Positions 5,929 to 21,412 are shown, counted from the first letter of the stretch. The stretch is DNA of 64,000 nt from Desulfomonilia bacterium (GCA_050014195.1 JBEKDT010000015.1:64953-128952), one strand, 5' to 3'. Notes: a model not told the origin generated them from the sequence alone. Numbers and translations: made by a program.

Positions 5929-6613
5929 TTGGTAATGGGACGAGATCGGCCTTGCTCCGGCCGATCATTGCAAAGAGCTGTTTGCCGTTGACGAGCTTGA
6001 TGGGGTTGCCTTTGGAAAAATCGATCGCCTCCTGGGTAAAGATGCCTGAGGTAATAACGATTCCTCCCGAGGCCTTCTCGTCGTAAACGACTCCGAGCAG
6101 TTCGTGGACAATGACGACGTCCACGCTCTCCATCTTCCAGTGCTTGCACTGGACAAAGATGGTCTCGCCGTTCTTTTTCAGGACAAGGTCCACTCCCTTG
6201 TATGCCCCGCCGCCTCCGGTCTCAATGACGGTGTAGCCTCTTCTTCTGTATGCATCGCCCACGATCCGCTCGAAATCCCGCCAGCTCAGTGCCCGGAGTG
6301 TTTCCCAATTCTTCCGGCTCTTGAAAAGAACGATCCTCTTTTTGCGGATGAAAACTGAATTCAAGAAAAAGAGGCCTGCCGTTACGAGAAAAAAGAACAA
6401 GGCCGAGTTGGCAAATGTCGGGCCTGATTGCGCCAGGCTTCTCAAAAAGATATCATGAGGAATGCCGTTGGGACTTGGTGCTGCATGGTAATTACCCCAC
6501 ATTGCCGGGAATGCATACTTCAATAATCCATAGCTGAGGACTGCAAGAATAACGCTGACCCACCATAATGCCTCAATCAGGTCATCAGCAAGTGAGGTGA
6601 TTTTTCTTGCCAT
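5750..6613 (-). CDS. Membrane-anchored Mrr-like restriction endonuclease with degenerate C-terminal topoisomerase-type Zn ribbon
   Basis: Two N-terminal hydrophobic helices; LSWRDFE..GVDLVL..VQCKHW..GIVITSGIFTQEA Mrr_cat pattern; CPWSG/YGCSTYP tail. Confidence 0.8.
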   Translation of the reverse strand: MARKITSLADDLIEALWWVSVILAVLSYGLLKYAFPAMWGNYHAAPSPNGIPHDIFLRSLAQSGPTFANSALFFFLVTAGLFFLNSVFIRKKRIVLFKSRKNWETLRALSWRDFERIVGDAYRRRGYTVIETGGGGAYKGVDLVLKKNGETIFVQCKHWKMESVDVVIVHELLGVVYDEKASGGIVITSGIFTQEAIDFSKGNPIKLVNGKQLFAMIGRSKADLVPLPKNKPAAFQTPVRDNPAPLPCPWSGSATILHTAKKGSTPVNKLYGCSTYPERKETGPFET

Positions 6614-6881
6614 GATCTAATCCTTTCCCGGTAGTATGCTTGATTATAGCTTTATCTAAATTTCACCAGATATGTATTAATAACTTCGGATCAGGGAAAA
6701 ACCAGTCAGACCAAGAAAAAATGAGACGGATTTATCGTATCATCGCTGTCCTCAAGCACGCCGGTGGGAATTTCACAGCAGCTCATCATGGAGGAGGTCT
6801 TGTCAAAGGGCCGGAAGGGTTCCATGCCTGCGCCCGGGTAATCGCGCCTGGTTGTGTGGTTTACCTTGAATCAGCTGGTTT

Positions 6882-7052
6882 TTAGTTATTGCCGCACCGC
6901 GCCTGCATGGCAGCGATGTCTTCAGGGGCAAGCCCTTTGCAATCGGAATTAATCCTGTAATACATGATGGAACCCGGGTTTTTGCTGTGCTCGAGACCCT
7001 GGGCATGGCCGAACTCATGGGCCAGCGTACGCACAAGCATGTTGTGGCCGCT
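6882..7052 (-). pseudogene. 3' (catalytic) part of a matrixin/M10 metzincin metalloprotease gene, separated from its 5' part by the integrated element
   Basis: Manual translation: SGHNMLVRTLAHEFGHAQGLEHSKNPGSIMYY...RCGNN*; HExxHxxGxxH plus SIM Met-turn. Not in the ORF track. Confidence 0.9.
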
Positions 7053-7088
7053 TAAATGTTAAATCTTCTTATATACTCCCTTTTATAG
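7051..7088. repeat. Left attachment junction (core CT + element arm TAAATGTTAAATCTTCTT)
   Basis: Arm 7053-7070 matches the reverse complement of 20637-20654 at 15/18 positions; a tcccttt block recurs further in. Confidence 0.85.
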
Positions 7089-7246
7089 TCACTGGCAAAA
7101 TCTCTGCATCCCATAGATCATCAATATCGTAATAGTATCATAAACTTGGAACCCACTTTGACAAATTGATGTAAAATATATTTTAAGCTTTGGTGTAATG
7201 AAATTTATTTTATAATGAAGATAAAAAATATTTTGGAGGAACATCA

Positions 7247-7480
7247 ATGAATACCAAAGCCATACATCTATCTCACATAAATGTGAATTCCTGGCAGCGT
7301 TTCAAATCGTGCGCAGCTATAAAAAATATGGCTATTAACGATCTAGCGAACGTGATGATTGAGGAATTCGTGGATGATTTCGAGGAAAAACTCTTTCGAG
7401 AAGCCTATCACAAGAAGCTTGCCGACCCCACTACCGATCTCAGTAAACCTATAACAGTCAAACTCACGAGGACGAAGTAA
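7247..7480 (+). CDS. Putative ribbon-helix-helix DNA-binding protein
   Basis: GGAGGA RBS; short beta-like KAIHLSHI followed by amphipathic helices WQRFKSCAAIKNMAINDLANVMIEEFV. Confidence 0.55.
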   Translation: MNTKAIHLSHINVNSWQRFKSCAAIKNMAINDLANVMIEEFVDDFEEKLFREAYHKKLADPTTDLSKPITVKLTRTK

Positions 7481-7481
7481 T

Positions 7482-7700
7482 ATGAAAAACATCAGCGAGT
7501 GTGAGAGTTTCGAGGAATGGGCAATGTCGTTCAGTGATGATGAATTCAAGGAATTCGTCGCTGACAAATTTGGTGAACTTTCGATGGATCTGCGGAATAG
7601 AGATTTTAACATTGATCTCGTCTTACCAATCGTCGAATCAATAAAACAGGCTGTTTTTATACGTTATCAGTCGAAAGATCCGACAATCACAAATCATTAA
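7482..7700 (+). CDS. Small acidic hypothetical protein
   Basis: Starts 1 nt after the previous stop. Confidence 0.55.
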   Translation: MKNISECESFEEWAMSFSDDEFKEFVADKFGELSMDLRNRDFNIDLVLPIVESIKQAVFIRYQSKDPTITNH

Positions 7701-7924
7701 AAACACAATGAACATCCCAGGCCTGTATAAACCCCTATGTTTGTCAAATAAACATCACCTGGGACATCTCAGGAAGGAAAGCACTCATTGTAGAAAGGAA
7801 CCGCATTCTTGCGGATTCTATAGAACAGGTGGGATAGGGTCGCTCCCGACAAGAACGGTAAACTCCTTGGACCGTTCTTCCCACTTTTTATCATTCCATG
7901 GAGAACATGCACCGAGGAGGCATA

Positions 7925-8506
7925 ATGGAACGGGTTTCACGACGAATCTATCATAATGACCCTAAATTCAAGCCCAAGACTATCAAAGGTAAGACCAGAT
8001 GGCAGCATGACAATAGCAAATGGCCCCTCAATTTCGGGTGGATGGAGAAGGACAAAAGTATCTGGCGCAGACTCAATAATCCCAAGGATCGGAGTTTCCA
8101 TCACATGATTACAATCCTACAACACTTATGGGAGAAAAGGCTGGATCTGTTCGAGAGTAAATTTATTGCTGAACGTATAAACGCTGGTTTGTACAATACG
8201 CATAAATACGATGATGAGGGAAAGGAACGGAGATGGCCCTTTGTGATGTGTGCTCCACTTGATTATGATTATTTAGAAGCCCGAGACCTGGATCAAAGAA
8301 AGATCAGCTATTGTCTCAATGCACTCGTGAAGTGTGGCTTCTTACGAAGTTTCCGTCGGATAGGTCGCAATGGTCCAGTGAACTATGCAATCGGCTATTA
8401 CATAGTGACATCACACGCTCCTTATGGCCGTGCATATCCTTTTTTGAAGAGTAACCCAGCGTGTCAAAAAGCACTGATTAATTTCAAATTCAGGGAGAAG
8501 ATGTAG
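7925..8506 (+). CDS. Putative winged-helix replication initiator
   Basis: GAGGAGG RBS before ATG 7925; C-terminal QRKISYCLNALVKCGFLRSFRRIG..NYAIG resembles wHTH; iteron-like repeats follow immediately. Confidence 0.45.
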   Translation: MERVSRRIYHNDPKFKPKTIKGKTRWQHDNSKWPLNFGWMEKDKSIWRRLNNPKDRSFHHMITILQHLWEKRLDLFESKFIAERINAGLYNTHKYDDEGKERRWPFVMCAPLDYDYLEARDLDQRKISYCLNALVKCGFLRSFRRIGRNGPVNYAIGYYIVTSHAPYGRAYPFLKSNPACQKALINFKFREKM

Positions 8507-8517
8507 TGATTTTGAAA

Positions 8518-8578
8518 TGTAAAAAGATCTACCCATGGTTTGTAAAAAGATCTAGCCATGGGGCATGGATAGATCTTT
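8518..8578. repeat. Iteron-like repeats (candidate origin or packaging site)
   Basis: TGTAAAAAGATCTA(C/G)CCATGG at 8518-8538 and 8541-8561; inverted partial copy CATGGATAGATCTTT at 8564-8578; AT-rich tract follows. Confidence 0.7.
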
Positions 8579-9299
8579 ATCATATTTGATGGTTGGTTGA
8601 TTAATGTTGAATAACAATATGTTACACGATAAATTGAAAAAATCAATTGTGGCACATATTATACCTATTTTTAGGTATCCCTTATATAGTACCAATAGGT
8701 TCTTCTTCACTTCGTTCAGAAGAACATTGAGCAAACTTCGTTTGCTCTATCTCCCTCTTCTCTTTTTCAATGGAAGGAATGGAAAGACTATCCCATTCAG
8801 ATTGAAAGAGTTTGTTTTTCCCCATTAGGGGAATTTTAGTCGGGAGCCTAAGTTTTGGAGGCTCCATATGAAATTGAAGGTTTCAAAGGTTGCCAGAGTG
8901 TTTCTCAGTATCCATTTGGCAAGTGACCTATTCGGGTCCAGTGCCAGGGGATTTCCCATCTACCAAGAAGCACATGATTCATTGAAGATCAATCCAAGTA
9001 CCCTCGCCACTGTAAGATGGGTGGATGATCGGGAGCTACTTACATCACTCAAATATTGGAGGCGTGATGGGTATGTGTATGGGTTGTTGCTGAACCGATT
9101 GGTTACGGGAGACCTCCCATGTGCTGGGTATGAAGGCAGTCGGGAGCCATATGGTGATTTTTGAGGATTAATCCGGGCTTACCAAGTCTAAAGTCTTAAG
9201 TTATACTTTAGACTTTGGCACAAGAAGGCATAAAAAACGAGGAATAAACTAATCATTTGAAATGTAATAAATAAATACAACGGGTTATGAGGTAATTGA

Positions 9300-11111
9300 A
9301 TGACACTTACACGAACCAGATTCCCAATCAAAGAGGATAAAGCACCAGACATCGACCCTACCATTGACCCTGAAACTGACATCGATCAGGAACATAAAAC
9401 CAACATACCCACTACCAAACAGAGAGGGTTCCCTAAAGGATCTCCAAGGCCTCCGAGGATAGCCGAGCGCTGGCAGGAGAACACGGAAGAAGCCTTCTAT
9501 GCCTGGTTGGAAGATGTCAAGCCCATGATCCTTACACGATCAGGTAGGTATGAGGTCTTCCGACCCACACCTGAGCAGAAGACAATCATCAAGGCCGTCT
9601 TCACACAAGAAAATGGAAAGCTTAAGCACTCCATGATCCTGTCCATTCAGCCTCGTAGACACGGCAAGAGTACAGTCTTTGCAATCATAGCACTCTTCTT
9701 TTTCTGTTCCAGGAAGAACTACACCATTTCTTTGCTAGGTAATAACGATACGCACACCGATAGGACAATGCTCAGGAAGCTCAAGTCCATCATCCAGCAT
9801 ACCGGAGGCTTAAGAATTCGGATAGACCCCGACAGGGACATCCTTCATGACTGTATACGCCAGGAAACCTGGGGAAACCAAATAATCAAGCAAGGCGTTT
9901 CAAGTGCATCCGCATTCGGAGAGCGTATAAATCTGCTATGGGTATCGGACCTCCATGCAGCCCCTGACATCTCGATATTCAACGCAGTCCAGGCCTCACT
10001 CTTAGACTCGGAAGATTCCCTGATCCTCATAGACAGCAATGCAGATTCCATAGGCGGTCCCGTTCATGGCTTGGAAGAAGAAGCCATGTCCGACCCTTCA
10101 ATATTTTGCAGACACCTGGAATACAAGGATTTTGAAGAGTTTACAGAGAAAGCCCCTGCATGGATTGACCGATCCAGAGCCAAGCGCATACAAAGAACAG
10201 CCTTGGAAGCAGACTACCAGCGCGACATCCTCGGCAAACGCTCATCAGTAGCCAATGCTCTCTTCCCCGAAATCCTTATCAGGGCAGCTATGGACAGCTA
10301 TAAAATCCCCGTTCTTGACATCAAAGACCTCGCCCATGGCAGACCCTACAAGGTCGGTGCTGGTTTAGACCGAGCAAAGCTGTTGTCTCCGATAATGGGA
10401 GGAGATCACAGCGTCCTGACGACCGTTGCCAAGGTCGCCCAGACATCAGGTGAGCCCGAATATTTCATCCTCGACATGCACGATTTTACCTTGAACCTCA
10501 GCAAGGCAATAAAGGCCAGGATCATAGAGAATCACAAGAGATACACCCTCACCAATGTTGTCTTAGAATCATTCGAGACAGTAGACCTTCTCCCATATCT
10601 GGCAGAAATGCAAATTTCCCATGAGTCAATCCATGCAACAGACGTCGCACAGAACACGATATTCCCTGAGTTCTACCGCATAGTGAAGGACGGTAGGCTC
10701 CATATCCCGGCAAACTGCACCCAGCTTGCCGATGAAATGCGCTCATTCATTTATACCGCAAAGAAACATGGACAATACAGCTTTGGGCATTCATCAAGCC
10801 AGTTCCATGACGATGCCGTGTACGCCACTGCATGGGCGATCTTCTCTCTCAGGAATGAGATTCTTAGCATGTATCAGCTTGATCTACTCGATTGTCAGAA
10901 TCAATCCTCGCTCAAACGGGCTCTATGTTTCTTATTTGGTGGTTCAAAAGTCATGCACTGCTCTGAAGGCTGTGCTGCATTCCATTCAGTCCAGGACATG
11001 CACCAAGACTTCCTGGCATTCAATCAGTTGGACAGCGAGCTTAACTTGGTTGAGTTTTTCAAGGCATACGTCCAGACCAAAGACACCATCAAACAATATC
11101 AGGTGCTGTAA
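9300..11111 (+). CDS. terL: Terminase large subunit
   Basis: PTPEQ adenine-binding motif, QPRRHGKST Walker A, GLDRA and FHDDAVYA nuclease acidic motifs; upstream of portal and capsid genes. Confidence 0.85.
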   Translation: MTLTRTRFPIKEDKAPDIDPTIDPETDIDQEHKTNIPTTKQRGFPKGSPRPPRIAERWQENTEEAFYAWLEDVKPMILTRSGRYEVFRPTPEQKTIIKAVFTQENGKLKHSMILSIQPRRHGKSTVFAIIALFFFCSRKNYTISLLGNNDTHTDRTMLRKLKSIIQHTGGLRIRIDPDRDILHDCIRQETWGNQIIKQGVSSASAFGERINLLWVSDLHAAPDISIFNAVQASLLDSEDSLILIDSNADSIGGPVHGLEEEAMSDPSIFCRHLEYKDFEEFTEKAPAWIDRSRAKRIQRTALEADYQRDILGKRSSVANALFPEILIRAAMDSYKIPVLDIKDLAHGRPYKVGAGLDRAKLLSPIMGGDHSVLTTVAKVAQTSGEPEYFILDMHDFTLNLSKAIKARIIENHKRYTLTNVVLESFETVDLLPYLAEMQISHESIHATDVAQNTIFPEFYRIVKDGRLHIPANCTQLADEMRSFIYTAKKHGQYSFGHSSSQFHDDAVYATAWAIFSLRNEILSMYQLDLLDCQNQSSLKRALCFLFGGSKVMHCSEGCAAFHSVQDMHQDFLAFNQLDSELNLVEFFKAYVQTKDTIKQYQVL

Positions 11112-11317
11112 TGTACGAGAAGACAGAAGATTTATGGCTCCCATTAATAGGAGATGGTCAGATAGAATTTAGATGTGCAGCCTGCCGGAGATATTTTGGG
11201 AGAGGTTTATTCCCACCAGGATCTTTCCTGCTTCATAAATGTGGGAAGTGTGACCGGATAAACAGGCTTGGAGCCCATGGCGCTTCATTGGCATCACTCG
11301 GGGTAATAAAAAAATAA
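11111..11317 (+). CDS. Mu Com-like zinc-finger protein
   Basis: EFRCAACRRYFGRG...HKCGKCDRIN; TAATG overlap with terL. Confidence 0.65.
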   Translation: MYEKTEDLWLPLIGDGQIEFRCAACRRYFGRGLFPPGSFLLHKCGKCDRINRLGAHGASLASLGVIKK

Positions 11318-11332
11318 GGAAGGTAACAAGTA

Positions 11333-11533
11333 ATGGCAACAGGAACAGTAAAATGGTTCAACAGAGAAAAAGGGTATGGGTTTATCACAGTAGACGGTGG
11401 AAGTGATGTCTTTGTGCATTGGAAAAACATCTTAGGAGATGGGTTCAAGATGCTGGTTGAAGGCGATTCCGTAAGATTCGACATCGAGGAAGGCCCGAAG
11501 GGAGATCAGGCAGTTAACGTGAGGGAAGAATAA
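11333..11533 (+). CDS. Cold-shock protein (CspA family)
   Basis: [16 protein letters not shown] (RNP1), DVFVHW (RNP2), [10 protein letters not shown]. Confidence 0.95.
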
Positions 11534-12051
11534 TGATCAAGCAAAATGGCAAATGGACGAGGATTCCACCCGAGCTTGAGCGGGCTTTTTACGCCCACCA
11601 TGAGGCCGGTCATGTGGTGATGCATTACCTCAAAAAAGTGAGATTTGCTTATGTGACTATCAATGGAACCATGTCTGAACGTCCAGATGTTAAATCTTTC
11701 GTCTGCGTTAATCCAATATCCTTTGAGAAAAGGAAAAAGGTACTGGAAAGGGAATTTCTTCTTGATATGGCCGGGACAATTGCCGAAAAAATTTATCTCA
11801 AGTCCAAAGGCTATGAGGTGTGTCCCGGGTATACAAAAAGTGACTTGCGGTTAATCATGAACAAGGCTGAAAAGTATTTTGGGATTACAGAACCAGATGT
11901 AATTGACAAAAAACTAAAAGAACTTGAGCCCGAGTGCAAAAATCTCATTGAACAGAACTGTAAAGCTATTACAGCCATTGTGGAAGCCCTACTGAAAGAA
12001 GAGACGATAGGATACAAAAAGGCCAGAGAGATCATCAAAAGAATAAAATAA
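11533..12051 (+). CDS. Stand-alone M41 (FtsH-type) zinc peptidase domain protein
   Basis: AHHEAGH, MAGTIAEKI, SDL and AIVEALLKEETI match the FtsH protease domain; no AAA or TM part. Confidence 0.7.
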   Translation: MIKQNGKWTRIPPELERAFYAHHEAGHVVMHYLKKVRFAYVTINGTMSERPDVKSFVCVNPISFEKRKKVLEREFLLDMAGTIAEKIYLKSKGYEVCPGYTKSDLRLIMNKAEKYFGITEPDVIDKKLKELEPECKNLIEQNCKAITAIVEALLKEETIGYKKAREIIKRIK

Positions 12052-12077
12052 GTTTTCGTCTTGTTATAGAAAAAAAC

Positions 12078-12176
12078 TATAATAACATATATCACGAAAA
12101 GCCCCCTTTTCATGCATAGAGCCCCATGGAGGCCAGCCGACGGCCAAACCATTGGGGCTCTTTTGCTTTTAGGAGG
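12078..12176 (+). promoter_or_regulatory. -10 box plus structured 5' leader of the portal gene
   Basis: TATAAT 12078-12083; stem AGAGCCCCA (12118-12126)/TGGGGCTCT (12153-12161) followed by T-runs; AGGAGG at 12171-12176. Confidence 0.5.
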
Positions 12177-12183
12177 TTAGTGA

Positions 12184-13530
12184 ATGTTTTGGAACAGCGT
12201 TGTTGACGATGTAGCATTTCGAACATGGGGATTCAGTGCGACTGACCCCGTCTTGATGCGGAAGCAGGAACACCTCCGCAGGATTGAGTATTACCACGAC
12301 TTACAGTTAGATTTCCTGCGGATGCAGCTTACCCGACATTTCGCAGATGCAAGCAAGATCACGCCGATGTTTATCAATGTGACCCGAAAAGTCATAAACA
12401 ACATTGCCAGGGTTTACATTTATCCGGTCACGAGGCAGATCGTCAAAGGCTCAACAACCGACACCGAACTTTTCCAAGCAATTGCCCTCACATCGTCTCT
12501 TGGAAGAAAACTCAAGCTGGCAAGTCGATATTGCAAGCTCCTTAAAACCCTTCTGCTCAGGCCAATATGGCGTGATGGTCACATGGACTTGGACCTGATA
12601 ACGGGTGACAAAACCGATGTCACTTATGGTGATGTTCCGGAGCAGTTACTATCGGTCAAAATAACGATCTATCCTGACTCAGGAAAGCTCGAAGACCTAA
12701 CATATAGCCTTTGGACTGCCCAAGAGTTCCAGACGCTTGACTACAGAAATAAAGTGATTGCAAGCCAGCCAAATCCTTACGGCGTTTTGCCATTCGTCCC
12801 GATCTGGGATGGTGTTCCAGTTCGAGATTTTTGGATCGATGGCGGTGACGATCTGATCACAGCCCAGGATGCCGTTAACGAGAGGTTGACCGATTTATGC
12901 TATGTTTTACGCCTTCAAGGATACGGTCAGCCTTATACAATCGGTGTACCACAAAGCACCGACTTTTATTTGGGACCAGGTGCAGTAACCCAACTGCCAC
13001 AGGGATGTAGCATGGGCTTTGCCTCAACTAACGCCCCAATCAGCGCGATCATCGAAGCAATAAAATTTCTCATAGGTCAGACAGCTGTCTCGTATGGCCT
13101 GTCCGCGCATATTCTAATTGACGAACCGGAACGATCTTCCGGAATTAGCAAGATAATTTCTAGCCAGGAGCTAGATGAAGCCCGGCAGGACGAGGTCGAG
13201 CTTTTCATGGATTACGAGCATAACTTATTCAATATGTTCAAGGTTCTATGGAACCATCACAATCCTGGTAAACAGTTTTCCAAGAATGCAGAATTAAAAG
13301 TATCATTTGAAGATCCTAAACCAGAAGTTGATCCTCTGGTCCAAGCGAACGCATGGACTGCATTGATGGGCATGGGCGTCATATCGCCTGTGGACATCGT
13401 CATGGCTCGCAATCCTGACATAACGAGTAGACAAGATGCCCTCGCATATTTGCTGACTGTAGAATCCGAGATGAGAACCCTCAATGAGGGATATCCCATA
13501 ACCCCAAATCCAGGAAGGACGGTACCCTAA
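12184..13530 (+). CDS. Phage portal protein (SPP1 gp6-like)
   Basis: 448 aa; INVTRKVINNIA, QPNPYGVLPFVP, SSGIS, LKVSFEDPKP; position between terL and scaffold. Confidence 0.85.
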   Translation: MFWNSVVDDVAFRTWGFSATDPVLMRKQEHLRRIEYYHDLQLDFLRMQLTRHFADASKITPMFINVTRKVINNIARVYIYPVTRQIVKGSTTDTELFQAIALTSSLGRKLKLASRYCKLLKTLLLRPIWRDGHMDLDLITGDKTDVTYGDVPEQLLSVKITIYPDSGKLEDLTYSLWTAQEFQTLDYRNKVIASQPNPYGVLPFVPIWDGVPVRDFWIDGGDDLITAQDAVNERLTDLCYVLRLQGYGQPYTIGVPQSTDFYLGPGAVTQLPQGCSMGFASTNAPISAIIEAIKFLIGQTAVSYGLSAHILIDEPERSSGISKIISSQELDEARQDEVELFMDYEHNLFNMFKVLWNHHNPGKQFSKNAELKVSFEDPKPEVDPLVQANAWTALMGMGVISPVDIVMARNPDITSRQDALAYLLTVESEMRTLNEGYPITPNPGRTVP

Positions 13531-13925
13531 TGGAAAAAGAAGCAATCGTCAACGCAGACGGAAAAAGCGATGAAACAAAGGAAAAAGCCCAGGCCCAGGG
13601 CACGGACAATGCCACCGAAAAAGGCAGCAAGATGATTCCCAAGGAACGATTCGATCAGGTCAACCAGCAGAAAAAAGAGGCTCTTGAAGCCCTGCAATCC
13701 ATTGTTGATGAACTCATCGAGGACATCCCGGAAGAGTTTAAAGACCTCGTCCCTGACCTATCACCAGCAGTTAAAATAATGTGGATCAGGAACGCGCAGA
13801 AAAAGGGAATCTTTGGGAAGACATCTCCTGATGGGCTAGACACAAAGAGATCCGGGAATACGGCCCCCAGAAATCTTGAAGGTCTTAGTACACACGATTT
13901 AAGGAAACTTGGTTACAAAAACTAA
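13530..13925 (+). CDS. Capsid scaffolding protein
   Basis: Charged N-terminus, MIPKERFDQVN motif seen in phage scaffolds, directly upstream of MCP. Confidence 0.75.
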   Translation: MEKEAIVNADGKSDETKEKAQAQGTDNATEKGSKMIPKERFDQVNQQKKEALEALQSIVDELIEDIPEEFKDLVPDLSPAVKIMWIRNAQKKGIFGKTSPDGLDTKRSGNTAPRNLEGLSTHDLRKLGYKN

Positions 13926-14004
13926 AAAATAAATCCATTGTCTCAACATAGTTAGAGGCCATTGAAGAGCCCTTGTTTCTGACGTGGAAACAGGAGGAAA
14001 ATCA

Positions 14005-14925
14005 ATGGCTTTAACATTGTTAGATCAAGCTAAACTTTGCGTTGATCCGCTTCAAAAAGGCATTATCGAAGAGTACCCGCGAACTTCTGAGGTGCTTCAA
14101 CGACTACCCTTTATGTCAGTTTCAAGTGATACTTACAGATACAACAGGGAAGAAATTTTGCCAGGTGTCGGTTTTCGAGGCGTGAACGAGAGCTATAATG
14201 AAAGCACTGGCATACTCAATCCCCAGATCGAGACACTCATGATCTCAGGTGGGTTTAGCGATGTTGACCGTGCTCTAATTAAAACACAGGGAAATGTAAA
14301 CGATCTTCGGGCAATTTATGACGGACTAAAGGCCAAGGCATTAAGCCTGTTCTGGACTAAAGAATTCTTTAAGGGTGACACTACAGTCAACCCACGAGGA
14401 TTCGATGGTCTTGAAAAACGTCTGACTGGTCCGCAGCTCCTCGATATGGGCTCAAGTGCAGGTGGTGACACCTTGACCCTTGCCATGCTCGACGAGCTGA
14501 TCGACTGCTGCCCATGGGGTGTTGATTGTTTGTTTATGAACAGGACCATGAGGAGAAAGGTCAATGCCTTGATTCGTGCTTCCGGTGCAGCAATCGAGAC
14601 GGTCTCTGATGCCTTCGGTCAACAGATACCTTCATATGCATCCATACCAATCGGGATAATTTGGATCGATGAAAAAGGTAATGAAATCCTTGATTTCAAT
14701 GAACCTGCGCCTGGTGATGGTGCTACTGTTACCACCTCAATTTATGCAGTTAAATTTGGTGCAGGGCAGTACGTTTCAGGATTGCAGGTCAGTCCTATAG
14801 AAGTGCTCGATCTCGGCTTGTACGCTGGCGGTATCAAGTTCAGAACGCTGATCGAGTGGATCAGTGGCATGGCTGTCTTTAACTCAAGGGCAGCAGCGCG
14901 TCTACGTGGAATTAAAAACGCATAA
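14005..14925 (+). CDS. Major capsid protein (HK97 fold, no delta domain)
   Basis: AGGAGG RBS 13992-13997; MALTLLDQAKL..LPF..YRYNREEILPGVGFRGVNE..GFDGL..AAARLRGI resembles widespread phage MCPs. Confidence 0.88.
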   Translation: MALTLLDQAKLCVDPLQKGIIEEYPRTSEVLQRLPFMSVSSDTYRYNREEILPGVGFRGVNESYNESTGILNPQIETLMISGGFSDVDRALIKTQGNVNDLRAIYDGLKAKALSLFWTKEFFKGDTTVNPRGFDGLEKRLTGPQLLDMGSSAGGDTLTLAMLDELIDCCPWGVDCLFMNRTMRRKVNALIRASGAAIETVSDAFGQQIPSYASIPIGIIWIDEKGNEILDFNEPAPGDGATVTTSIYAVKFGAGQYVSGLQVSPIEVLDLGLYAGGIKFRTLIEWISGMAVFNSRAAARLRGIKNA

Positions 14926-15047
14926 TAGTGTCTCACTCCCAGGAGTGAGTGTTTTACCCGACCGGTCTGCCACTCAGACCTGTGTCATATTCTTAAATGG
15001 GGAGCAAGGATCGGCCTTGCTCCCCAGCCTCCAAGAAAGGATGAAGC

Positions 15048-15239
15048 ATGGAACGTAAAAGAGGTAGGCCCAAGAAAAGTATAAAACTGATGGAAAATAG
15101 GGTTGGGTTCTTCATTGAGATTTACAAGGATCTTCATCAGCAACTTAAGACTGAGTCCGACAGGCAAGGTGTGCCCATGTGCAAGTTTGTAGAAATAGCA
15201 ATCAAAGAATTACTTAAGTCATGTACAATGACATCTTAA
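15048..15239 (+). CDS. Putative ribbon-helix-helix protein with N-terminal AT-hook
   Basis: RKRGRPKK, then VGFFIEIYKDLHQQLKTESDRQGVPMCKFVEIAI. Confidence 0.6.
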   Translation: MERKRGRPKKSIKLMENRVGFFIEIYKDLHQQLKTESDRQGVPMCKFVEIAIKELLKSCTMTS

Positions 15240-16228
15240 AATTCCAGCATCGTGTAGATCAACGAAGCAATGCTCTTGCCTCGGATATGATCCGAGAGCT
15301 TGATGCTGCAAGGGTTGAAATCCTTGGAAAACTGGCTGATCTGCAAGATCGTTACATTCGAGGCGACTACAACACCGAGACATTTCAACGTAAACAGGCT
15401 TTCTTACTGCATCAGAGGAACGAGGTTGAAGATACCCTTGATAGTGTTTTCAGCAATATTGGAGATCAACTCCAATCAGCCTCAGAAGACGTTATCGCAG
15501 CGACAACCGTACACACGATCAGTACAATGAACAATAGCACTGGCCTTGACATCCAGTTCTTCCACTTGGACCCTGAACTTGTCCAGGCATGGTTCCAGAC
15601 CGGCCTTATCGAAGGCTCGACCCTCACAGACTGGCTCAATAAGCTAAAACAGTCCACAGCCGACAGAATAATTAAGGCACAAAGACAATCCCTCATTCAG
15701 GGCGAGAGTGTGGGGGGAATGGTCAAACGATTACGCCAGGAGGGCGTTGAGGGAAGTTATCGAGACCTCACTGGCCTTGCCCGAACCAGTATGCTTTCGG
15801 CTGCAAACTATGCTCGTGAACAAACCGTTACTCAGGGCTTCGGGGATGTGCTCACGGGCTGGCAATATTGCGCCACGCTAGATTCGAGGACGTGTTTGGT
15901 GTGTGGGGATTTGGATGGAACCACATATGGCCCTACAGATCAAAAAGAAGATTTACCCTTACATTGGTGCTGCCGATGTTGCTACATTCCACTAGTAGGT
16001 GGTGAGGGTGCTAACACTGATGATCGTCCAGCCGTTACAGATGAAAGAGTTGAGAGGTTTGACGGCACATACAACGAGTGGATGCAATCGCAATTAGAAT
16101 CCGACCCCGGCTTCGTCAAGGATGTTTTAGGCCCTGGAAGGTTTGATTTATTCAAAGATGGGAAAATAAGCCTTTCAAATATGGTTACAAATGGCGAAAT
16201 AACAACCCTTGCAGACCTCAAAGGATAG
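15221..16228 (+). CDS. Minor head morphogenesis protein (SPP1 gp7/Mu gpF family)
   Basis: LARTS, WQYCATLDSRTCLVCGDLDG, PLHWCCRC, TYNEWM, VLGPGRFDLF. Confidence 0.9.
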   Translation: MYNDILKFQHRVDQRSNALASDMIRELDAARVEILGKLADLQDRYIRGDYNTETFQRKQAFLLHQRNEVEDTLDSVFSNIGDQLQSASEDVIAATTVHTISTMNNSTGLDIQFFHLDPELVQAWFQTGLIEGSTLTDWLNKLKQSTADRIIKAQRQSLIQGESVGGMVKRLRQEGVEGSYRDLTGLARTSMLSAANYAREQTVTQGFGDVLTGWQYCATLDSRTCLVCGDLDGTTYGPTDQKEDLPLHWCCRCCYIPLVGGEGANTDDRPAVTDERVERFDGTYNEWMQSQLESDPGFVKDVLGPGRFDLFKDGKISLSNMVTNGEITTLADLKG

Positions 16229-16254
16229 GGGTTTTCAGAGGTCGGGGCTAACCT

Positions 16255-16482
16255 TTATCCTTCTATAGCCACTAAAACCGCTCCATTAACATATGAAGCA
16301 TAGCGATGATTTAAGTAAGTTACAATTTCATTATCCCATTTTAACTCATCCCCTTGATTATCTCTTGGCTTCCTATCTTTTATAGTCACCTCCATTGAAC
16401 TATATACTCCAAACTGAACGCTAAAACCTTTGGCCTTCCCGTCTCTCATCGTTCCACTAATCATTATAAACTTATATTCCAT
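16255..16482 (-). CDS. Hypothetical protein
   Basis: AAGGAG RBS before MEYKFIM; overlaps the upstream ORF. Confidence 0.5.
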   Translation of the reverse strand: MEYKFIMISGTMRDGKAKGFSVQFGVYSSMEVTIKDRKPRDNQGDELKWDNEIVTYLNHRYASYVNGAVLVAIEG

Positions 16483-16762
16483 TGCTTGACTCTCCTTTTT
16501 CTGGCTCCCCATATAGGGATACCCAGACTGCTCTTTTCATTTCTTTGGTTATGTATTTACCAACTATCGTTCTACAATCTTCAGCAAGTGCAATAAGCTC
16601 CTTTTTTGCTTTCTTTATGCGTTTGTCGGTCCAATTAGGGGTAACATCTAGAAGGTCACACCATTCAATATGACTGAGCATGTCATCCAAAACACATAAC
16701 TGGGTTAACAATTCGCCAATGTCTATACTGCCTGCAACCTTACCATTTTTTAACTTACCCAT
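16472..16762 (-). CDS. Hypothetical protein
   Basis: GAGGTG RBS, 96 aa. Confidence 0.55.
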   Translation of the reverse strand: MGKLKNGKVAGSIDIGELLTQLCVLDDMLSHIEWCDLLDVTPNWTDKRIKKAKKELIALAEDCRTIVGKYITKEMKRAVWVSLYGEPEKGESSNGI

Positions 16763-16995
16763 TTTTCACCTCTCTCGTTCATCATGCTTACATTATATCA
16801 TATTTTCAGATGAAACACGGTTTTCGGATAGGGTTTCAACAGGTCAGGGCAAAACCTTATCTCCTATATCTTTCTTTAATAATACAATCAATTTATATCT
16901 TTCACGAAATGTGAAAGATAGTCTTGTTTTTTAAATAAATAAAAATTATTATGAATATATCTTGTTATATCAAAAGCCTATGAAAGGAGAGAATT

Positions 16996-17349
16996 ATGGT
17001 TGCAAAAAAGGGACAAGTTAAGAAGTCAGGCAATGGCGATACCATTGAAAAGATCAATCGCAAACCAGTCCAGAAAAAGGCGGCTATCAAGGACGATCAA
17101 ACAGCAGCCCCCAAAGAAATCAAAACAGATGTTTTCGGTAACAGAGTCAATACCCAGTCCAGCCTGATCAATGAACTCCTCCTGAAAGGCACGAAGAAGG
17201 ACGTCATTGTCAAGGCTATCATGGACAAGTTCAACAGTCCTGAGAAGACGGCTACCGGCAAACTTCGGGGGCACATCAAACACCTCAAGAAAGAAGGACA
17301 TTCTGTAACCGAGAAGGATGACACCTATACCATAAAGATAAAAGGCTAG
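16996..17349 (+). CDS. Lysine-rich putative DNA-binding protein (C-terminal wHTH-like)
   Basis: AAGGAG RBS; very basic; SLINELLLKG..KLRGHIKHLKKEGHSVTEKDDTYTI. Confidence 0.6.
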   Translation: MVAKKGQVKKSGNGDTIEKINRKPVQKKAAIKDDQTAAPKEIKTDVFGNRVNTQSSLINELLLKGTKKDVIVKAIMDKFNSPEKTATGKLRGHIKHLKKEGHSVTEKDDTYTIKIKG

Positions 17350-17357
17350 GGGGCGAT

Positions 17358-17552
17358 ATGGATCTGATTGAACGTCAGGCAAAAGCGGATCAAGTCAAAA
17401 ACAGGGTGTTCAGTATTCTTACTGTGGCCTTAGCTCAGGTCAGGAATACAGTTGAGGAGTCCGGTCTTGAGATGAGAGACTGTGGCATCAGTGTTGAGCG
17501 ATACCAGGCCGGAGATCATTCAATATTCGTCGATCTCAGGATGAAGATATAA
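17358..17552 (+). CDS. Hypothetical protein
   Basis: AGGGGG RBS; followed by a terminator. Confidence 0.55.
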   Translation: MDLIERQAKADQVKNRVFSILTVALAQVRNTVEESGLEMRDCGISVERYQAGDHSIFVDLRMKI

Positions 17553-17585
17553 AAATATAACCCGCACCTACGAAAGACCTCCCTT

Positions 17586-17614
17586 GGCCCCGGTGCAATG
17601 CCGGGGCCTTTTTT
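17586..17614 (+). terminator. Rho-independent terminator
   Basis: GGCCCCGG-loop-CCGGGGCC followed by TTTTTT. Confidence 0.85.
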
Positions 17615-17666
17615 ATGCCCCTCGATGAATTTGGGGAGTCCTTTTAAGGCCCCGCCGCAACTGTGT

Positions 17667-17897
17667 CTAATCCTTCAATGGAATCCAGGCCCAACGGTGA
17701 AAGCCTTCTCTAAGCTTATATTTATAACAATCACCATTCGAATAAGTTGATGTCAGGATTCCTTGATCAGCATTGTAATCCCAGGTAAAAATATCACCGT
17801 ATGTTCCTCGGACCTGACACTTAAAACTTTTCTTTAAATCTATACTCAAAAAATCCAACTCGTCCTCGTCCCAAATTTCCTTATCTCCCAGATCCAT
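17667..17897 (-). CDS. Hypothetical protein
   Basis: AGGAG RBS before MDLGDKEIW. Confidence 0.5.
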   Translation of the reverse strand: MDLGDKEIWDEDELDFLSIDLKKSFKCQVRGTYGDIFTWDYNADQGILTSTYSNGDCYKYKLREGFHRWAWIPLKD

Positions 17898-18074
17898 TGT
17901 GATTCTCCTATAAATTTTTATTCGACGAATAAACAATCGTACAGACTATCGTAGCACACTTTTTTCAAAACCTTGTTCAGTCTGGAAAAATAGTTTTTAT
18001 GAGTAATTATCTTGTTTTATTTATATATTTATTTTATGATATTCTTAAAATAAATAAGGCAGGAGGGCCAAGTT

Positions 18075-18317
18075 ATGGCGGAAAAATTGAGGGCTTTTAC
18101 CCTTTACATCGAAGATATAAAGCTCCGTAAGATGAAGGCGATAGCAGCCTACAAGGATAAAAAGACAAGGGAAATTGTCAACGAGATGTTCGATCTCTAC
18201 CTGGCAAAGTTCGCTGAAACTGAGCAAGGCAAGCAGCTTATGGCATCCTTTGAAGAAGAACACAAAGGGGAAATCAAACTTACTCGCCTGAAGAAACCGG
18301 AATCACAAAAACCATGA
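18075..18317 (+). CDS. Putative ribbon-helix-helix protein upstream of the recombinases
   Basis: AGGAGG RBS; RAFTLYIEDIKLRKMKAIAAYKDKKTREIVNEMFDLYL. Confidence 0.6.
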   Translation: MAEKLRAFTLYIEDIKLRKMKAIAAYKDKKTREIVNEMFDLYLAKFAETEQGKQLMASFEEEHKGEIKLTRLKKPESQKP

Positions 18318-18334
18318 TATAATAAGGGGGAAAT

Positions 18335-19042
18335 ATGGCTGATGTGTACATGGTCACTAGAACATCGACAAATCACCAGGACCTTTCCATTGAGGCCCAG
18401 GATGCAGCCCTGAGAAAATGGGCTATGAATCATGGGCACATTGTGAAGGGTATTTCCACAGAGGACGGGGTGAGTGGTGGACGGGACATTAAGAAGCGTC
18501 ATATTATGAAGATCCTCAACAAGATGGGCAAAGGTGACATCCTGGCTACGTATTCATGGAGTAGGCTGACGAGAAGCCTTTCAGACCTGATGGAAATTGC
18601 CAAGATCCTGGAAAAGAAGGGGTCACATTTGGTGAGTCTCGTAGAGCAGATTGATACGAGCACCCCACAGGGCAGACTCTTCTATCACATCATGGGGTCT
18701 ATGCATCAGTTTGAAAGAGAGCTGATTGCTCAGCGAGTTAGGTTTGGACTGGACCACAAACGGTCAAAATCTGAGAAGTTGGGTGGCATGATTCCATTCG
18801 GCTATGATGTGAAGGTGGTTCCCGGTATGAATCGCAAGGGTGAGCCGACCAAGATCAAGAAGCTGGTCCCAAACGAGAAAGAGCATTTTATCATAGAGAA
18901 GATACTTACATTGCGACGGGAGTCATGCACTTTGAAGAATATTGCCAATACACTGAATGCCGAGGGCATCCCGACCAAGAATGGCAGTGTATGGCTTTCG
19001 GGCCAGATAAATAGGATAGTTCGACGGGAGGCAAGGGCATGA
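18335..19042 (+). CDS. Serine recombinase (resolvase catalytic domain + short recombinase DNA-binding domain)
   Basis: TRTST catalytic Ser, EDGVSG, SRLTRS, IDTSTPQGRL, FERELIAQR, PFGY, IANTLNAEG. Confidence 0.92.
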   Translation: MADVYMVTRTSTNHQDLSIEAQDAALRKWAMNHGHIVKGISTEDGVSGGRDIKKRHIMKILNKMGKGDILATYSWSRLTRSLSDLMEIAKILEKKGSHLVSLVEQIDTSTPQGRLFYHIMGSMHQFERELIAQRVRFGLDHKRSKSEKLGGMIPFGYDVKVVPGMNRKGEPTKIKKLVPNEKEHFIIEKILTLRRESCTLKNIANTLNAEGIPTKNGSVWLSGQINRIVRREARA

Positions 19043-20658
19043 CTACGGATGGATTGAAACCACCTCTACGTTTTGGGGTGCTGTGCCGTGTTAGCACCGA
19101 ACCTCAGGAAAAGCGTGGGGAATCCCTGAACAATCAAAAGAAGCAGGTCGAGTCTGCCGTGAAATATCTTGGTGGGATAATTACCATGCGATATGAGGGG
19201 CAAGAGCATAGTACACCAGGATCTGAACGAGAGATGCTTGACAGGGCTCTCGTAGATTCTGGCAAAGGTCTCTTCGATGCATTTATGGTCCCTGATCTCA
19301 CAAGATGGACCAGGGACAATGAAAAGAATAAGCAGAGTATCAGAATTTTTAGGATGAACAAGATACGCTTTTTTGTAGGAACGATGGAGTTCAATTTAAA
19401 CAAGTCTCATGATCGAATGATGATTGGAATGACGACAGAGGTCGGAGAAGGCACCGCTGGCTATATGGCAGAGAGGAGCAAGGAATGTCGTCATGATCTA
19501 TTTAGTAAAGGAGTGCCATGTGTCGGTCAGAAACCCTATGGACGAAAGTATGACAAGAAGACAGGCACATGGAGTATCGACGAAGAAAAGAAGGAAATGA
19601 TTAAGATAGCAGTCAAGAAGTTTCTATCAAAGATAGGCCGTGAGAAAATAGGCCGTGAGAAAATTGCAGAGGAAATGGGAATTTCTCCAAGCACATTGTA
19701 TATCATCTTCAAAAAATTCCTTGGTGATACATGGACCACTAAAATGGGGACAATGAAAATCCCTCCCCTGATTGAGGATCAGAAAATCATTAAAGCAGTC
19801 CATGAGAGACTTGAAAACAACAAGACCATCAACCATGATCCACGTGGGAAACATGCATATCTGTTATCCAGCATCATATTTTGCGCTGATTGCGGACTCA
19901 CCCTGAATGGCGTTCCCGATCAGATGAACTATGGAAAGACTGAGGCCCAATATAAATATAGGTACAGACACCCAAAGAACAAAAGCATCAAGCGTTTTTG
20001 CCCAAATTATAAAGCATGGGACATCAGGGCAGAGGACATAGAAGAAGCTGTGATAATCCAAATGCTATATCTTTTTGGACATAGAGAAGCATTAGAGAAG
20101 TCCATATTAAGAACTGTCCCCAATAATGAAAAATTGCAAGAACTGTCTGCCACCAAGGCAAGGTATAATAAGGAGTTCGATAATATTGAAAAAGAAATAC
20201 AGACCCTCATTGAAAAAACCGTCAAAGGAATATTTACGGATGAAGAAGCAAGACCCACTATGGAAAAATATCGTGAACGCAAGAGATTCCTCAAACTAGA
20301 GATGGATAATCTCGATACTCAGATTGGACAATCACCAACCAAAAAAGAGCTTAGTGCACTTGCCAAAAGAGTTCACCAACAGGCTTGGAAGGCACTTTAT
20401 CAAAATCCTGCAAAAATGACATGGACTCAGAAACGGGAACTTTTGTTAAAGGTATTTTTAGGGAAGCATGTCTCTGGCGATAAACCAGGTATCTATGTCA
20501 AAAAAGTTGATGATGTCGTGCATTATTCTATCAAAGGACTAATCAATCAGGAGATTGAGGGGTGTCTTCCAATGAGCGATTGGGAGAGGGAAGAATTGCT
20601 AGATAATCCTATAAAAGCAAAAGGGAATAATATAACAAGTAAATTTAACAATTACTGA
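19039..20658 (+). CDS. Large serine recombinase (integrase); stop codon formed at the right att junction
   Basis: CRVST catalytic Ser, DLTRWTR, PYG, YLLSSIIFCADCG Zn ribbon, long coiled coil; ATGA overlap with the upstream recombinase. Confidence 0.92.
   Translation: MTTDGLKPPLRFGVLCRVSTEPQEKRGESLNNQKKQVESAVKYLGGIITMRYEGQEHSTPGSEREMLDRALVDSGKGLFDAFMVPDLTRWTRDNEKNKQSIRIFRMNKIRFFVGTMEFNLNKSHDRMMIGMTTEVGEGTAGYMAERSKECRHDLFSKGVPCVGQKPYGRKYDKKTGTWSIDEEKKEMIKIAVKKFLSKIGREKIGREKIAEEMGISPSTLYIIFKKFLGDTWTTKMGTMKIPPLIEDQKIIKAVHERLENNKTINHDPRGKHAYLLSSIIFCADCGLTLNGVPDQMNYGKTEAQYKYRYRHPKNKSIKRFCPNYKAWDIRAEDIEEAVIIQMLYLFGHREALEKSILRTVPNNEKLQELSATKARYNKEFDNIEKEIQTLIEKTVKGIFTDEEARPTMEKYRERKRFLKLEMDNLDTQIGQSPTKKELSALAKRVHQQAWKALYQNPAKMTWTQKRELLLKVFLGKHVSGDKPGIYVKKVDDVVHYSIKGLINQEIEGCLPMSDWEREELLDNPIKAKGNNITSKFNNY
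20619..20656. repeat. Right attachment junction (arm AAGTAAATTTAACAATTA + core CT)
   Basis: Inverted counterpart of 7053-7070. Confidence 0.85.
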
Positions 20659-21412
20659 ATTGAAAAATGGTTATGCTTTCCCTGAACATGGTCCTCTCAT
20701 ACAGACCGGAAGCGAACTTCCCGGTCAGTTCGTTGCATGTGTTTTTGTAGCTCATCACCTGCGAATTGTGGTTTGATGCTATGGAACCGATGTCTGCAAC
20801 AATACCGTTCAGGTCGTCCACCGTCTTCTGCAGGTCCGCTTGTTGGGCCTGGAGGCCTTCCAACTCGGCATCGAGGGACTGCTTCTGCCCGGAAAGACTT
20901 TGAAAGGTTCCCCTGGAGACGGTGTCATCCTTATTCGCTGCATCAAGCTCAGCCCTGTAGGCATTCAGGTGCCTCATGTATGCATCATATTGCGCTGAAT
21001 AGGCGGCATTCTTCCGCTCCACCTCGGCTTTAAGATCATTGTACAGGGACATGAGCTCATCATACGATGCCTTTGCATCGTCTATGCCTCTGCTGATGTT
21101 TTTCAGATTGTCCGTTACTGCCTGCCGGTTGTCATACACCAGGTCTATCTCGATGGAGCCGGCCGGGTCTTCCTGGAAGATCTTGTGCCCGATGGCCTTC
21201 TCCCACATGGCGACCGCCTCATGAACGGCATCCGTAACCTCCTGCCTGCTCAATCCGAAGCGCTCATCGATGGAGTTGATGCGGTAGGTCATGATCGTGT
21301 TGAATGCCTCTGATCTGCCCTGGAAGATGCAGACAAAGAGGATACAGATGATGATTTGTGGCAGATACCTGATGGGGCTTAAGGGGTGGCTCGTGTATGC
21401 ATTTTTCATCAT
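20645..21412 (-). pseudogene. 5' part of the matrixin-family metalloprotease (signal/TM segment, N-terminal metzincin strands, coiled coil), truncated by the element
   Basis: TYRINSIDERFGLSRQEV..AVAMWEKAIG..IEIDLVYDNRQ, coiled coil, ends ITIFQFS|NC* at the att core; joins in frame to 6882-7050. Confidence 0.88.

Follow-up and report, generated by a model that had tools for sequence, protein, structure and literature searches.

A 13,604-bp integrated element was identified in a 64,000-nt stretch of DNA from a Desulfomonilia bacterium (GCA_050014195.1, JBEKDT010000015.1:64953-128952), which is referred to here, at its full length, as the window. The element occupied positions 7053-20654 and was inserted, exactly to the base, in a gene for a matrixin-type metalloprotease. 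It carried genes for its own head and DNA packaging and a pair of serine recombinase genes, and this layout was shared, wholly or in part, with two diverged relatives (loci L174 and L095). With moderate confidence, the element is interpreted as a mobile and probably functional capsid-forming phage satellite of a new lineage, which resembles the phage-inducible chromosomal islands that form capsids (cf-PICIs) but is not a member of them, has lost its own adaptor, and would take neck, tail and lysis functions from a helper phage. A different lineage of capsid-forming satellite or tail-less particle had been proposed in an original prediction, and the comparisons below support this proposal; the particles and the helper dependence are predicted from gene content.

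Boundaries and insertion site

The GC content was about 0.50-0.52 in the flanks and 0.38-0.49 over about 7000-20650, and the dinucleotide CT was duplicated on either side of the element. In a genome of the same genus (G004, locus L003, 86% identity), the protease gene was uninterrupted across the junction. The G004 DNA aligned up to the right junction and resumed at the left junction, and the two alignments overlapped by AG only (CT on the plus strand). As the homology switched flanks exactly there, the element was delimited as 7053-20654 with CT at either end. The left crossover dinucleotide (attL core) was placed at 7051-7052, where uninterrupted homology to the G004 gene begins and where two letters are shared in a contig joint of metagenome run X8; the right one (attR core) was placed at 20655-20656 by the same comparison and the same joint.

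The terminal 12 nt of the element, adjoining the CT cores, were inverted repeats. The left arm (7053-7064) was the reverse complement of the right arm (20643-20654) at 11 of 12 positions, and both were taken as putative attP half-sites. Judged from their sequence, the ends have the usual look of a serine-recombinase attP, and the layout of a 2-bp crossover with imperfect inverted arms and without long direct repeats fits a large serine recombinase. The intact junctions of a 13.6-kb element, as first predicted, were confirmed by the orthologue, the empty site in run X8 and the paired arms.

The C-terminal part of the matrixin-like (Peptidase_M10) host gene was located at 6882-7052 on the minus strand, with the HExxH zinc motif carried by the ORF (open reading frame) ending at 6882. 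The N-terminal part was located at 20657-21532 on the minus strand, within an ORF of 295 aa (20645-21532), and gave a weak Peptidase_M10 match; its true start is probably downstream of 21532. When the flanks were rejoined in silico, an open frame of 348 aa with the HExxH motif was obtained. Intact protease orthologues were 308-345 aa long with 74-91% identity, and one was named 'matrixin family metalloprotease [Desulfomonilia bacterium]'. A search with the N-terminal part gave matches in 13 of 41 related genomes, with open frames of up to about 410 aa.

Occupied and empty sites in peat metagenomes

All 24 runs listed for the locus were peat or wetland metagenomes, none of them on record as RNA. 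Logan contigs of four peat-metagenome runs were aligned over 6000-21700. A single contig of run X3 spanned the whole occupied locus. In run X8, one contig joined 7050 to 20655 and skipped the 13,604 bp exactly, with two letters shared; the depth of this empty-site joint was 9.8 and that of the occupied form 31. The X8 contigs also broke at 7023-7052 and 20655-20684, as expected of an assembly-graph branch. The shorter side of the joint was only 28 nt, less than is comfortable for calling such a joint, and its position coincided to the base with the junction predicted from the orthologue. Empty and occupied sites coexist in the peat population.

Serine recombinases

The two serine recombinases named in the original prediction were confirmed, with PF00239 and the catalytic-serine motif found in both. 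The small recombinase (235 aa, 18335-19042, plus strand) matched PF00239 (E 8.5e-34) and the start of PF07508. The large recombinase (539 aa, 19039-20658, plus strand) matched PF00239, PF13408 and phrog_95; PF07508 was matched only in the 235-aa protein. In L174, a homologue of the small recombinase was likewise paired with a large one.

The large recombinase gene contains the attP crossover within its 3' end, and its stop codon straddles attR, being made of one core base and two host bases. The computed ORF was 539 aa in the integrated form and 565 aa in the circular form, a difference of 26 aa in the tail. Because the crossover falls within the 3' end of the gene, integration rewrites the C-terminal tail of the recombinase, and the rewritten tail could act as a switch. 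In L174, at about 14750-14813, the large recombinase ORF similarly extends about 60 nt into host DNA.

Head and packaging genes

The 24 ORFs of the element, together with flanking and alternative-frame ORFs, were scanned with PHROGs and Pfam. The head and packaging genes were all on the plus strand. TerL (603 aa, 9300-11111) matched phrog_2 (E 1.5e-13) and phrog_9 (E 6e-9), with Pfam Terminase_6N/6C under the cut-off, and was 56-57% identical in L095 and L174. The major capsid protein (MCP; 313 aa, 13984-14925) was of the PF20911 type and matched phrog_212 (E 2e-76). A Mu-F or SPP1 gp7-type head morphogenesis protein (335 aa, 15221-16228; hereafter Mu-F) matched phrog_241 (E 5e-45) and PF04233 (E 5e-11). 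The genes of these three proteins were intact, and all head and packaging ORFs were open.

The portal and the scaffold gave weaker matches. The probable portal (448 aa, 12184-13530), which sits between TerL and the scaffold and MCP genes, matched phrog_104 (E 0.0044) and was 48-57% identical in L095 and L174. Against PDB sequences, a portal profile of 11 homologues found nothing at E up to 1, and hhalign gave a probability of 1.6%, that is no match, against the annotated portal of Paenibacillus phage Tripp. The scaffolding protein (131 aa, 13530-13925) matched PF06810 (E 0.014) and, at E 2e-41, a hidden Markov model (HMM) of the same-position ORFs of relatives; its gene lies directly upstream of the MCP gene, as in phage Tripp. 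Both assignments were accepted on the grounds of size and position and because, in the relatives, the two genes are strictly co-conserved with those of TerL and MCP. The original prediction of uninterrupted TerL, portal, scaffold, MCP and gp7/gpF genes was therefore clear for TerL, MCP and Mu-F, and weakly matched for the portal and the scaffold.

A small ribbon-helix-helix (Arc/Omega-like) protein was encoded at 15048-15239 on the plus strand (phrog_3180 E 1e-6; PF07764 and PF12651 under the cut-off). A terminator-like hairpin was seen at 14932-14949, immediately past the capsid gene.

Missing neck, tail, lysis and replication functions

The PHROGs and Pfam scan of the element ORFs revealed no tail, neck, holin or endolysin family above noise. 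The sole 'tail' match inside the element was an 85-aa minus-strand ORF (E 0.0064). Outside the head, packaging and recombinase genes the largest ORF was 202 aa, in agreement with the earlier statement that the other ORFs are small and none resembles a tail, tape-measure, head-tail connector, holin or endolysin gene.

The six-frame translation was also searched with HMMs of the Ad1 head-tail adaptor and of clusters c8, c9 and c10 of relatives. The best E values were 0.055 to 1.7, while control HMMs in the same search gave 2e-41 (scaffold) and 1e-107 (Mu-F). The Ad1 and c8 HMMs had no match in the window, L174 or L095; positive controls gave E 1e-48 or better, with a range of 1e-48 to 1e-58 for Ad1. 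As predicted, then, the small ORFs were not found to be neck or tail proteins by PHROGs, Pfam or the adaptor HMMs, and the predicted folds of two conserved small proteins (o202 and o98, described below) were a winged-helix core and an unmatched alpha/beta domain. Going by these models, neither o202 nor o98 resembles a neck protein.

No Pfam or PHROGs match to an AlpA regulator or a primase-replicase was found in the element ORFs (E up to 0.05 and 0.01, respectively), nor any to an HNH nuclease or TerS family. PHROGs and Pfam likewise gave no prohead protease family in the element, which has the scaffold and Mu-F in its place.

Relatives and phylogeny

The MCP was present in a single copy in the host genome, and among 60 related genomes one weak match was obtained (E 2e-5). 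In a collection of 5.8 billion proteins its best non-self matches were 69% identical, and the named homologues came from Desulfarculus, Desulfovibrionaceae, Desulfobacteraceae and similar metagenome-assembled genomes (MAGs). A single-MCP query of genome contigs gave no loci; alignment-based scans gave 80 genome loci, 80 IMG/VR loci and 14 metagenome loci. Six of these (L091-L093 and L171-L173) were not counted as independent because they are the window's own integrated sequence.

One of the nearest relatives, L174, is a 14,862-bp metagenome contig that holds a bounded element of about 14.6 kb, inserted in a UPF0047-family gene whose halves form the contig ends. It has the same gene order as the window: o202, o98, TerL, o68, cargo, portal, scaffold, MCP, Mu-F, a variable region, and the small and large recombinases. 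Identities to the window were 29% for o202, 41% for o98, 57% for TerL, 41% for o68, 57% for the portal, 62% for the scaffold, 68% for MCP, 60% for Mu-F, and 38% and 37% for the small and large recombinases. L094 coincides exactly with a part of L174. The incomplete locus L095 (12.5 kb) has in common with the window the genes from o202 through Mu-F. The region from Mu-F to the recombinases and the slot from TerL/o68 to the portal differed among all three elements. The search of genomes and viromes for the same synteny, suggested with the original prediction, had in this way returned, within the window's own clade, one element with the complete order, including both serine recombinases, and one partial element.

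L174 (ends 1-110 and 14750-14862) also bears an intact UPF0047 gene between its recombinase genes (L094 4556-4972), which looks like a spare copy of the disrupted gene. The window element has no copy of the split matrixin gene.

Beyond these elements, an undescribed family was found (L011-L024 and most of L094-L170), whose TerL, portal, scaffold, MCP and Mu-F genes are homologous to those of the window and follow one another as they do there. In the nearest genome loci (L011-L024) the order was TerL, portal, scaffold, MCP, (c8), (c4), Mu-F and (c9). Sizes were similar to that of the window element, and identities to it were 30-48% for TerL, 30-50% for the portal and 50-66% for MCP. When representatives of the gene clusters were scanned, c4 matched the head-tail adaptor Ad1 (phrog_477, E 2.5e-22) and c9 was a sigma-70 region-4-like helix-turn-helix protein; c7 was a tyrosine integrase, c20 and c21 were D5-type and DnaG-type primases, and c22 was an ERCC4 nuclease. 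Most relatives carry the tyrosine integrase, a D5 or DnaG primase, c8, Ad1, c9 and sometimes Hc1; the clade of the window has none of these and has instead the serine recombinase pair, o202, o98 and o68.

Among 77 IMG/VR relatives, tblastn detected MCP in 77, the scaffold in 73, the portal in 62, TerL in 50, c8 in 49, Mu-F in 42, Ad1 and c9 in 22 each, the tyrosine integrase in 12, the small serine recombinase in 7 and the large one in 1. All were on contigs of at most 27 kb, many of 11-16 kb, to which provirus trimming could contribute. No terminal direct repeat was found on the IMG/VR relatives L091-L170 or on L174, L176, L095 and L094. Among the 75 ORFs downstream of MCP in 11 loci were Ad1 (5) and Hc1 (2), besides integrases, methylases, anti-repressors and host enzymes; the 25 of 71 families listed for these ORFs included no tail family, and a single weak one could be hidden in the remainder.

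Two distinct elements (five loci, L104-L106 and L108-L109) encode a tape-measure-like protein of 941-1057 aa directly after Mu-F, and the lack of tail-type genes is thus not uniform across the wider family. Between Mu-F and this gene, neither tail tube nor chaperone genes were seen. A tape measure like that of the EPIP satellites is one possible identity of the protein, and an internal head or ejection protein is another.

An MCP tree of 159 rows was constructed with FastTree and midpoint-rooted. The window, L095 and L094/L174 formed a clade of four rows with an SH-like support of 97. Its sister (support 96) was L012/L013/L102, which have c8, Ad1 and c9, and both clades nested in an 88-row group of small elements. 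Owing to this nesting, the adaptor-less layout with serine recombinases is regarded as derived and as persistent through deep divergence. Taken as a whole, this large and undescribed family consists of small elements with capsid genes, and its named members come mainly from Desulfobacterota MAGs.

These relatives bear on whether the element is a defective remnant, that is a larger phage or satellite which has lost its neck, tail and replication genes and which integrates and excises without forming transmissible particles. A pattern of loss is visible in the tree: the sisters carry c8, Ad1 and c9, farther relatives also carry primases, the clade has none of them, and no replicase or TerS is recognisable. 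Decay is nevertheless unlikely, because the reduced gene set and its order are kept in three elements at 29-68% protein identity, with the large genes open. Moreover, the conserved small proteins o202, o98 and o68 accompany the head genes, and in the population the occupied site exists beside an exact empty one. Descent by deletion from a tailed prophage of 35-50 kb, which had been named as the result that would overturn the original prediction, was not seen, as the nearest relatives (L174/L094 and L095) are head-only (MCP 68%, TerL 56-57%, portal 48-57%) and the next-nearest are small as well, combining head genes and Ad1 with a primase and a tyrosine integrase. If the element were a remnant, the finding would be an ordinary one; conservation across diverged copies argues against this.

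Two further relatives had unusual arrangements. One 27,380-bp IMG/VR contig (L110/L113) carried two family MCP genes about 16 kb apart, each followed by serine recombinase genes, and is probably a tandem array of two elements. L176 (12,594 bp), a more distant relative, carried a Rep_3 plasmid-type initiator, Ad1 between the portal and the scaffold, and a small serine recombinase; it is placed outside the adaptor-less clade because of its Ad1 adaptor. Both ends of L176 lie in near-identical, not identical, scaffold-gene sequence, as if wrapping a unit of about 12.5 kb. These ends fit a circle, a concatemer or a tandem array and were not counted as proof of a free form.

Comparison with known phages and satellites

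TerL and the portal had no tblastn match in 50,697 phage records, and MCP identity to phages was at most 52%. Phage Tripp (54 kb), a temperate siphovirus, shares an MCP about 50% identical and, in broadly the same order, TerL, portal, a minor head (Mu-F-like) protein, scaffold and MCP. Unlike the window, it continues past MCP for about 10 kb with genes for neck, tail and lysis; these comprise six small ones and those for a tape measure (963 aa), Dit, a tail protein (774 aa), a holin and an endolysin. The neck, tail and lysis modules of a complete tailed prophage (Caudoviricetes) are absent from the window element by PHROGs, Pfam and HMM searches.

According to the available text of two reports, cf-PICIs build their own heads and take only tails (10.1101/2022.09.08.507074; 10.1101/2025.02.11.637232). 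They are described in that text as elements of about 15 kb with int, alpA, rep, capsid, protease, portal, head-tail connector, HNH, TerS and TerL genes and no tail genes (10.1101/2022.09.08.507074); the hosts reported are Proteobacteria and Firmicutes, and the median size is 14 kb. Their adaptor and connector are said there to set tail compatibility, tail-less capsids being released and free tails acquired later (10.1101/2025.02.11.637232). The window element resembles cf-PICIs such as EcCIEDL933 in being an integrated element in the range of about 10-18 kb with its own capsid protein, portal and TerL, without tail or lysis genes, with a variable accessory slot, and with head genes clearly apart from those of known phages. 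Compared with the features used to recognise cf-PICIs (10.1101/2022.09.08.507074; SatelliteFinder, PMC10085698), it has a recombinase at the right end of a 13,604-bp island, but of the serine type, and its own MCP and TerL are clear, with a portal that is weak but positionally conserved.

The differences from cf-PICIs are as follows. AlpA, primase-replicase, prohead protease, head-tail adaptor and connector are all missing from the window element; no HNH or TerS family was matched, and the conserved o98 and zinc-ribbon o68 on either side of TerL have no family assignment. Its head is of the scaffold and Mu-F type, whereas theirs is of the protease type, and it has two serine recombinases where cf-PICIs usually have a tyrosine integrase. 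Its named relatives come mainly from Desulfobacterota MAGs, while cf-PICIs are reported from Proteobacteria and Firmicutes, and the likeness shown is one of shared fold classes. Five of the gene features that define cf-PICIs are lacking; the element works like a cf-PICI and is not one.

EPIPs, actinobacterial satellites of Mycolicibacterium, are helper-dependent elements of about 11 kb with a serine integrase, a scaffold and a capsid protein, and are reported with TerS, a head-to-tail adaptor, a stopper and a tape measure, and not with TerL or a portal (PMC12822802). By this description the window element differs in having TerL and a probable portal and in having no adaptor, stopper or tape measure. 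Serine integrases are also mentioned for PLEs in the available text of one paper. Since other satellites already have serine recombinases, this trait alone is not new. The small HK97-fold genomes treated in a 2026 paper are those of portal-less and tail-less elements, which are a different matter. No description of the family was found in the literature searched, including that on phage satellites and Desulfobacterota; supplementary tables of surveys, which possibly list some members, were outside the scope.

The capsid-forming satellites described so far come from Proteobacteria and Firmicutes; they have protease-type heads and bring tail adaptors of their own, by which host range is reportedly set. 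To these, the locus adds a large family, not recognised before, that has another type of head and occurs in anaerobic environmental bacteria, and its conserved adaptor-less clade poses the question of how tails are acquired, or DNA delivered, without an own neck. It also provides a compact, self-contained packaging module of about 7 kb and two new serine recombinases with attB and attP exactly defined.

Proposed life cycle and alternative explanations

In the proposed life cycle, the large serine recombinase, with or alongside the small one, would insert the element at CT in the protease gene, and excision would restore that gene exactly. After induction, the element would replicate, perhaps from the repeats adjoining the winged-helix protein o202. 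Procapsids would be built from its own portal, scaffold, capsid protein and Mu-F and would be filled with element DNA by its own TerL. Neck, tail and lysis functions would come from a co-infecting or co-resident helper phage, and this supply would be needed because no adaptor, head-closure, tail or lysis function is encoded. The slot between TerL and the portal carries exchangeable accessory genes.

The host genome (4.2 Mb, 29 contigs, 100% complete by markers) was searched for a helper with family profiles. It gave no match to PF05065, PF04860, PF04984, PF03237 or PF03354, the families searched including those of an HK97-type capsid, a portal, a sheath, Terminase_6N and TerL_ATPase, and the tape-measure family PF10145 gave one sub-threshold match only. 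The Mu-F family search recovered the element's own copy. PF20557 (Ad1-type) had no match in the host genome, and its control likewise matched no genome, so that this negative carries no weight. There is no sign of a resident helper; prophages can be absent from a MAG, and the helper may be a lytic phage.

The same search bears on whether the element is one part of a split or multipartite phage, with neck, tail and lysis genes elsewhere in the genome or on a co-induced partner. MAGs often miss prophage contigs, and tandem arrays exist, as in the IMG/VR contig with two MCP copies described above. The 4.2-Mb genome, however, contained no sheath, HK97-type capsid, second portal, second TerL or convincing tape measure, and MCP was single-copy, so that such an arrangement is considered very improbable.

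Several points weigh against the interpretation as a helper-dependent satellite. No helper was found in the host genome by the families listed above, and no primase-replicase or small terminase is recognisable in the element. The portal assignment is weak (phrog_104 E 0.0044, no match in PDB or to the Tripp portal). The short side of the X8 joint is 28 nt, and the joint could come from strains that never carried the element and not from excision. No circular-junction contig was found in the four runs, so the attP-spanning sequence proposed as a check was not recovered; this is weak evidence because contigs drop rare forms. Tail docking is unexplained, as the clade has neither the adaptor nor the connector that decide tail compatibility in cf-PICIs. 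Particle formation, finally, is predicted from the genes.

The absence of neck genes from three diverged elements and of helper-type genes from the host genome would also agree with a tail-independent particle, in which DNA-filled tail-less heads are the end product and are released on host lysis. Delivery could then occur by extracellular tails docking directly to the portal (an adaptor-less 'tail piracy') or by uptake into competent cells. The available text on cf-PICIs points both ways, since tail-less capsids are reported to be shed and to gain tails later, but this capture depends on their own adaptor and connector. The element also encodes no lysis function. Heads of the SPP1 and P22 type normally lose their packaged DNA without head-completion proteins, and to our knowledge no tail-independent system of such a kind is known. 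This explanation is judged unlikely.

A broader proposal, which we regard as tentative and rather improbable, is that the clade has a stable head-only lifestyle without a neck of its own, its capsids docking via the portal on the neck-tails of unrelated phages or serving as tail-less vehicles. Together with the adaptor-bearing relatives, it would then represent a further independent origin of capsid-forming satellites, in Desulfobacterota-type anaerobes, including a recombinase whose 3' end is rewritten on integration and a spare copy of the target gene in at least one member. The dependence on a helper for neck, tail and lysis remains the preferred interpretation.

Small, regulatory and cargo genes

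At the left end, two small ORFs of 77 and 72 aa (7247-7700, plus strand) had no PHROGs or Pfam match and were not conserved in L174, L095 or L176. They are followed by the conserved o202 (202 aa, 7898-8506, plus strand), whose core is a winged helix and which is a candidate for initiating replication or recognising DNA. Homologues were found at the matching position in L095 and L174, the L174 match being the C-terminal part of a 412-aa ORF. The AlphaFold2 model of o202 had a pLDDT of 65.7. Its top Foldseek rows, plasmid Rep initiators and TubR, were not significant (E 0.1), and the VIA Z scores of up to 5.8 were to generic winged-helix proteins and too low to indicate anything beyond a widely shared arrangement. 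Iteron-like repeats at 8518-8578 (a 15-23-nt unit in two direct copies and one inverted copy) form a candidate ori or pac site. The rep/ori candidate of the original prediction could be followed as far as the winged-helix protein and these repeats; the fold matches are weak, and the pair is offered as a lead only.

The 98-aa protein o98 (8868-9164, plus strand) is encoded just upstream of TerL, and a 41% identical homologue occupies the matching place in L174. Its family comprised seven representative clusters in 1.84 billion proteins. The AlphaFold2 model (pLDDT 85.5) was a confident small alpha/beta domain, for which no fold match was obtained (best E about 1 in PDB by Foldseek, best E 0.2 in BFVD, best VIA Z 3.3). 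A resemblance to a kinase fragment in the Atlas was rejected for low shared-feature counts and a poor Atlas model. From position alone, a TerS-like or packaging role is possible as a guess.

Between TerL and the portal lies a hot spot for cargo genes (11111-12051 in the window, 4535-6530 in L174, 3262-6520 in L095). In the window this slot begins with o68 (11111-11317, plus strand), a 68-aa zinc-ribbon-like protein with homologues in L174 (E 4e-10) and, weakly, in L095 and no PHROGs or Pfam family. It is followed at 11333-12051 on the plus strand by a cold-shock-domain protein (66 aa; PF00313 E 1e-26) and an M41-like metallopeptidase with an HExxH motif (172 aa; PF01434 E 7e-8, 32.9 bits, above the cut-off). 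The peptidase gene is not conserved in the relatives. The L174 slot holds a reverse transcriptase and a helix-turn-helix protein on the opposite strand, possibly a defence system, and the L095 slot holds unknown genes.

The variable regulatory or accessory region (16255-18317) carried small ORFs on both strands, none conserved in L174, L095 or L176. Among them was o117 (16996-17349), a probable winged-helix protein of 117 aa; the Atlas leads to DUF3489 and helix-turn-helix proteins scored below the reliable level and were rejected. A strong terminator-like hairpin (10-bp stem with 8 GC pairs, then a T run) lies at 17586-17608 after a 64-aa ORF, and a listed 50-aa ORF is probably not a gene because the hairpin overlaps it. 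Neither Rfam (E up to 0.1) nor a tRNA scan gave a match in the element, and promoter-like sites were no commoner than in shuffles.

Flanking host genes

At 21460-21700, the summed contig depth rose about 5- to 8-fold and many contigs had loose ends. The first approximately 25 residues of the annotated N-terminal protease ORF matched two other host contigs at 79-84% identity. This stretch is probably a short dispersed repeat, with the real protease start further in. Genes for a Fic/DOC protein, an Mrr-type restriction endonuclease and an NTP_transf_8 nucleotidyltransferase were located at 4278-6613 and 22134-22832. The Fic neighbour reflects host synteny, as a Fic gene also adjoins the protease gene in another genome of the same genus (G003).

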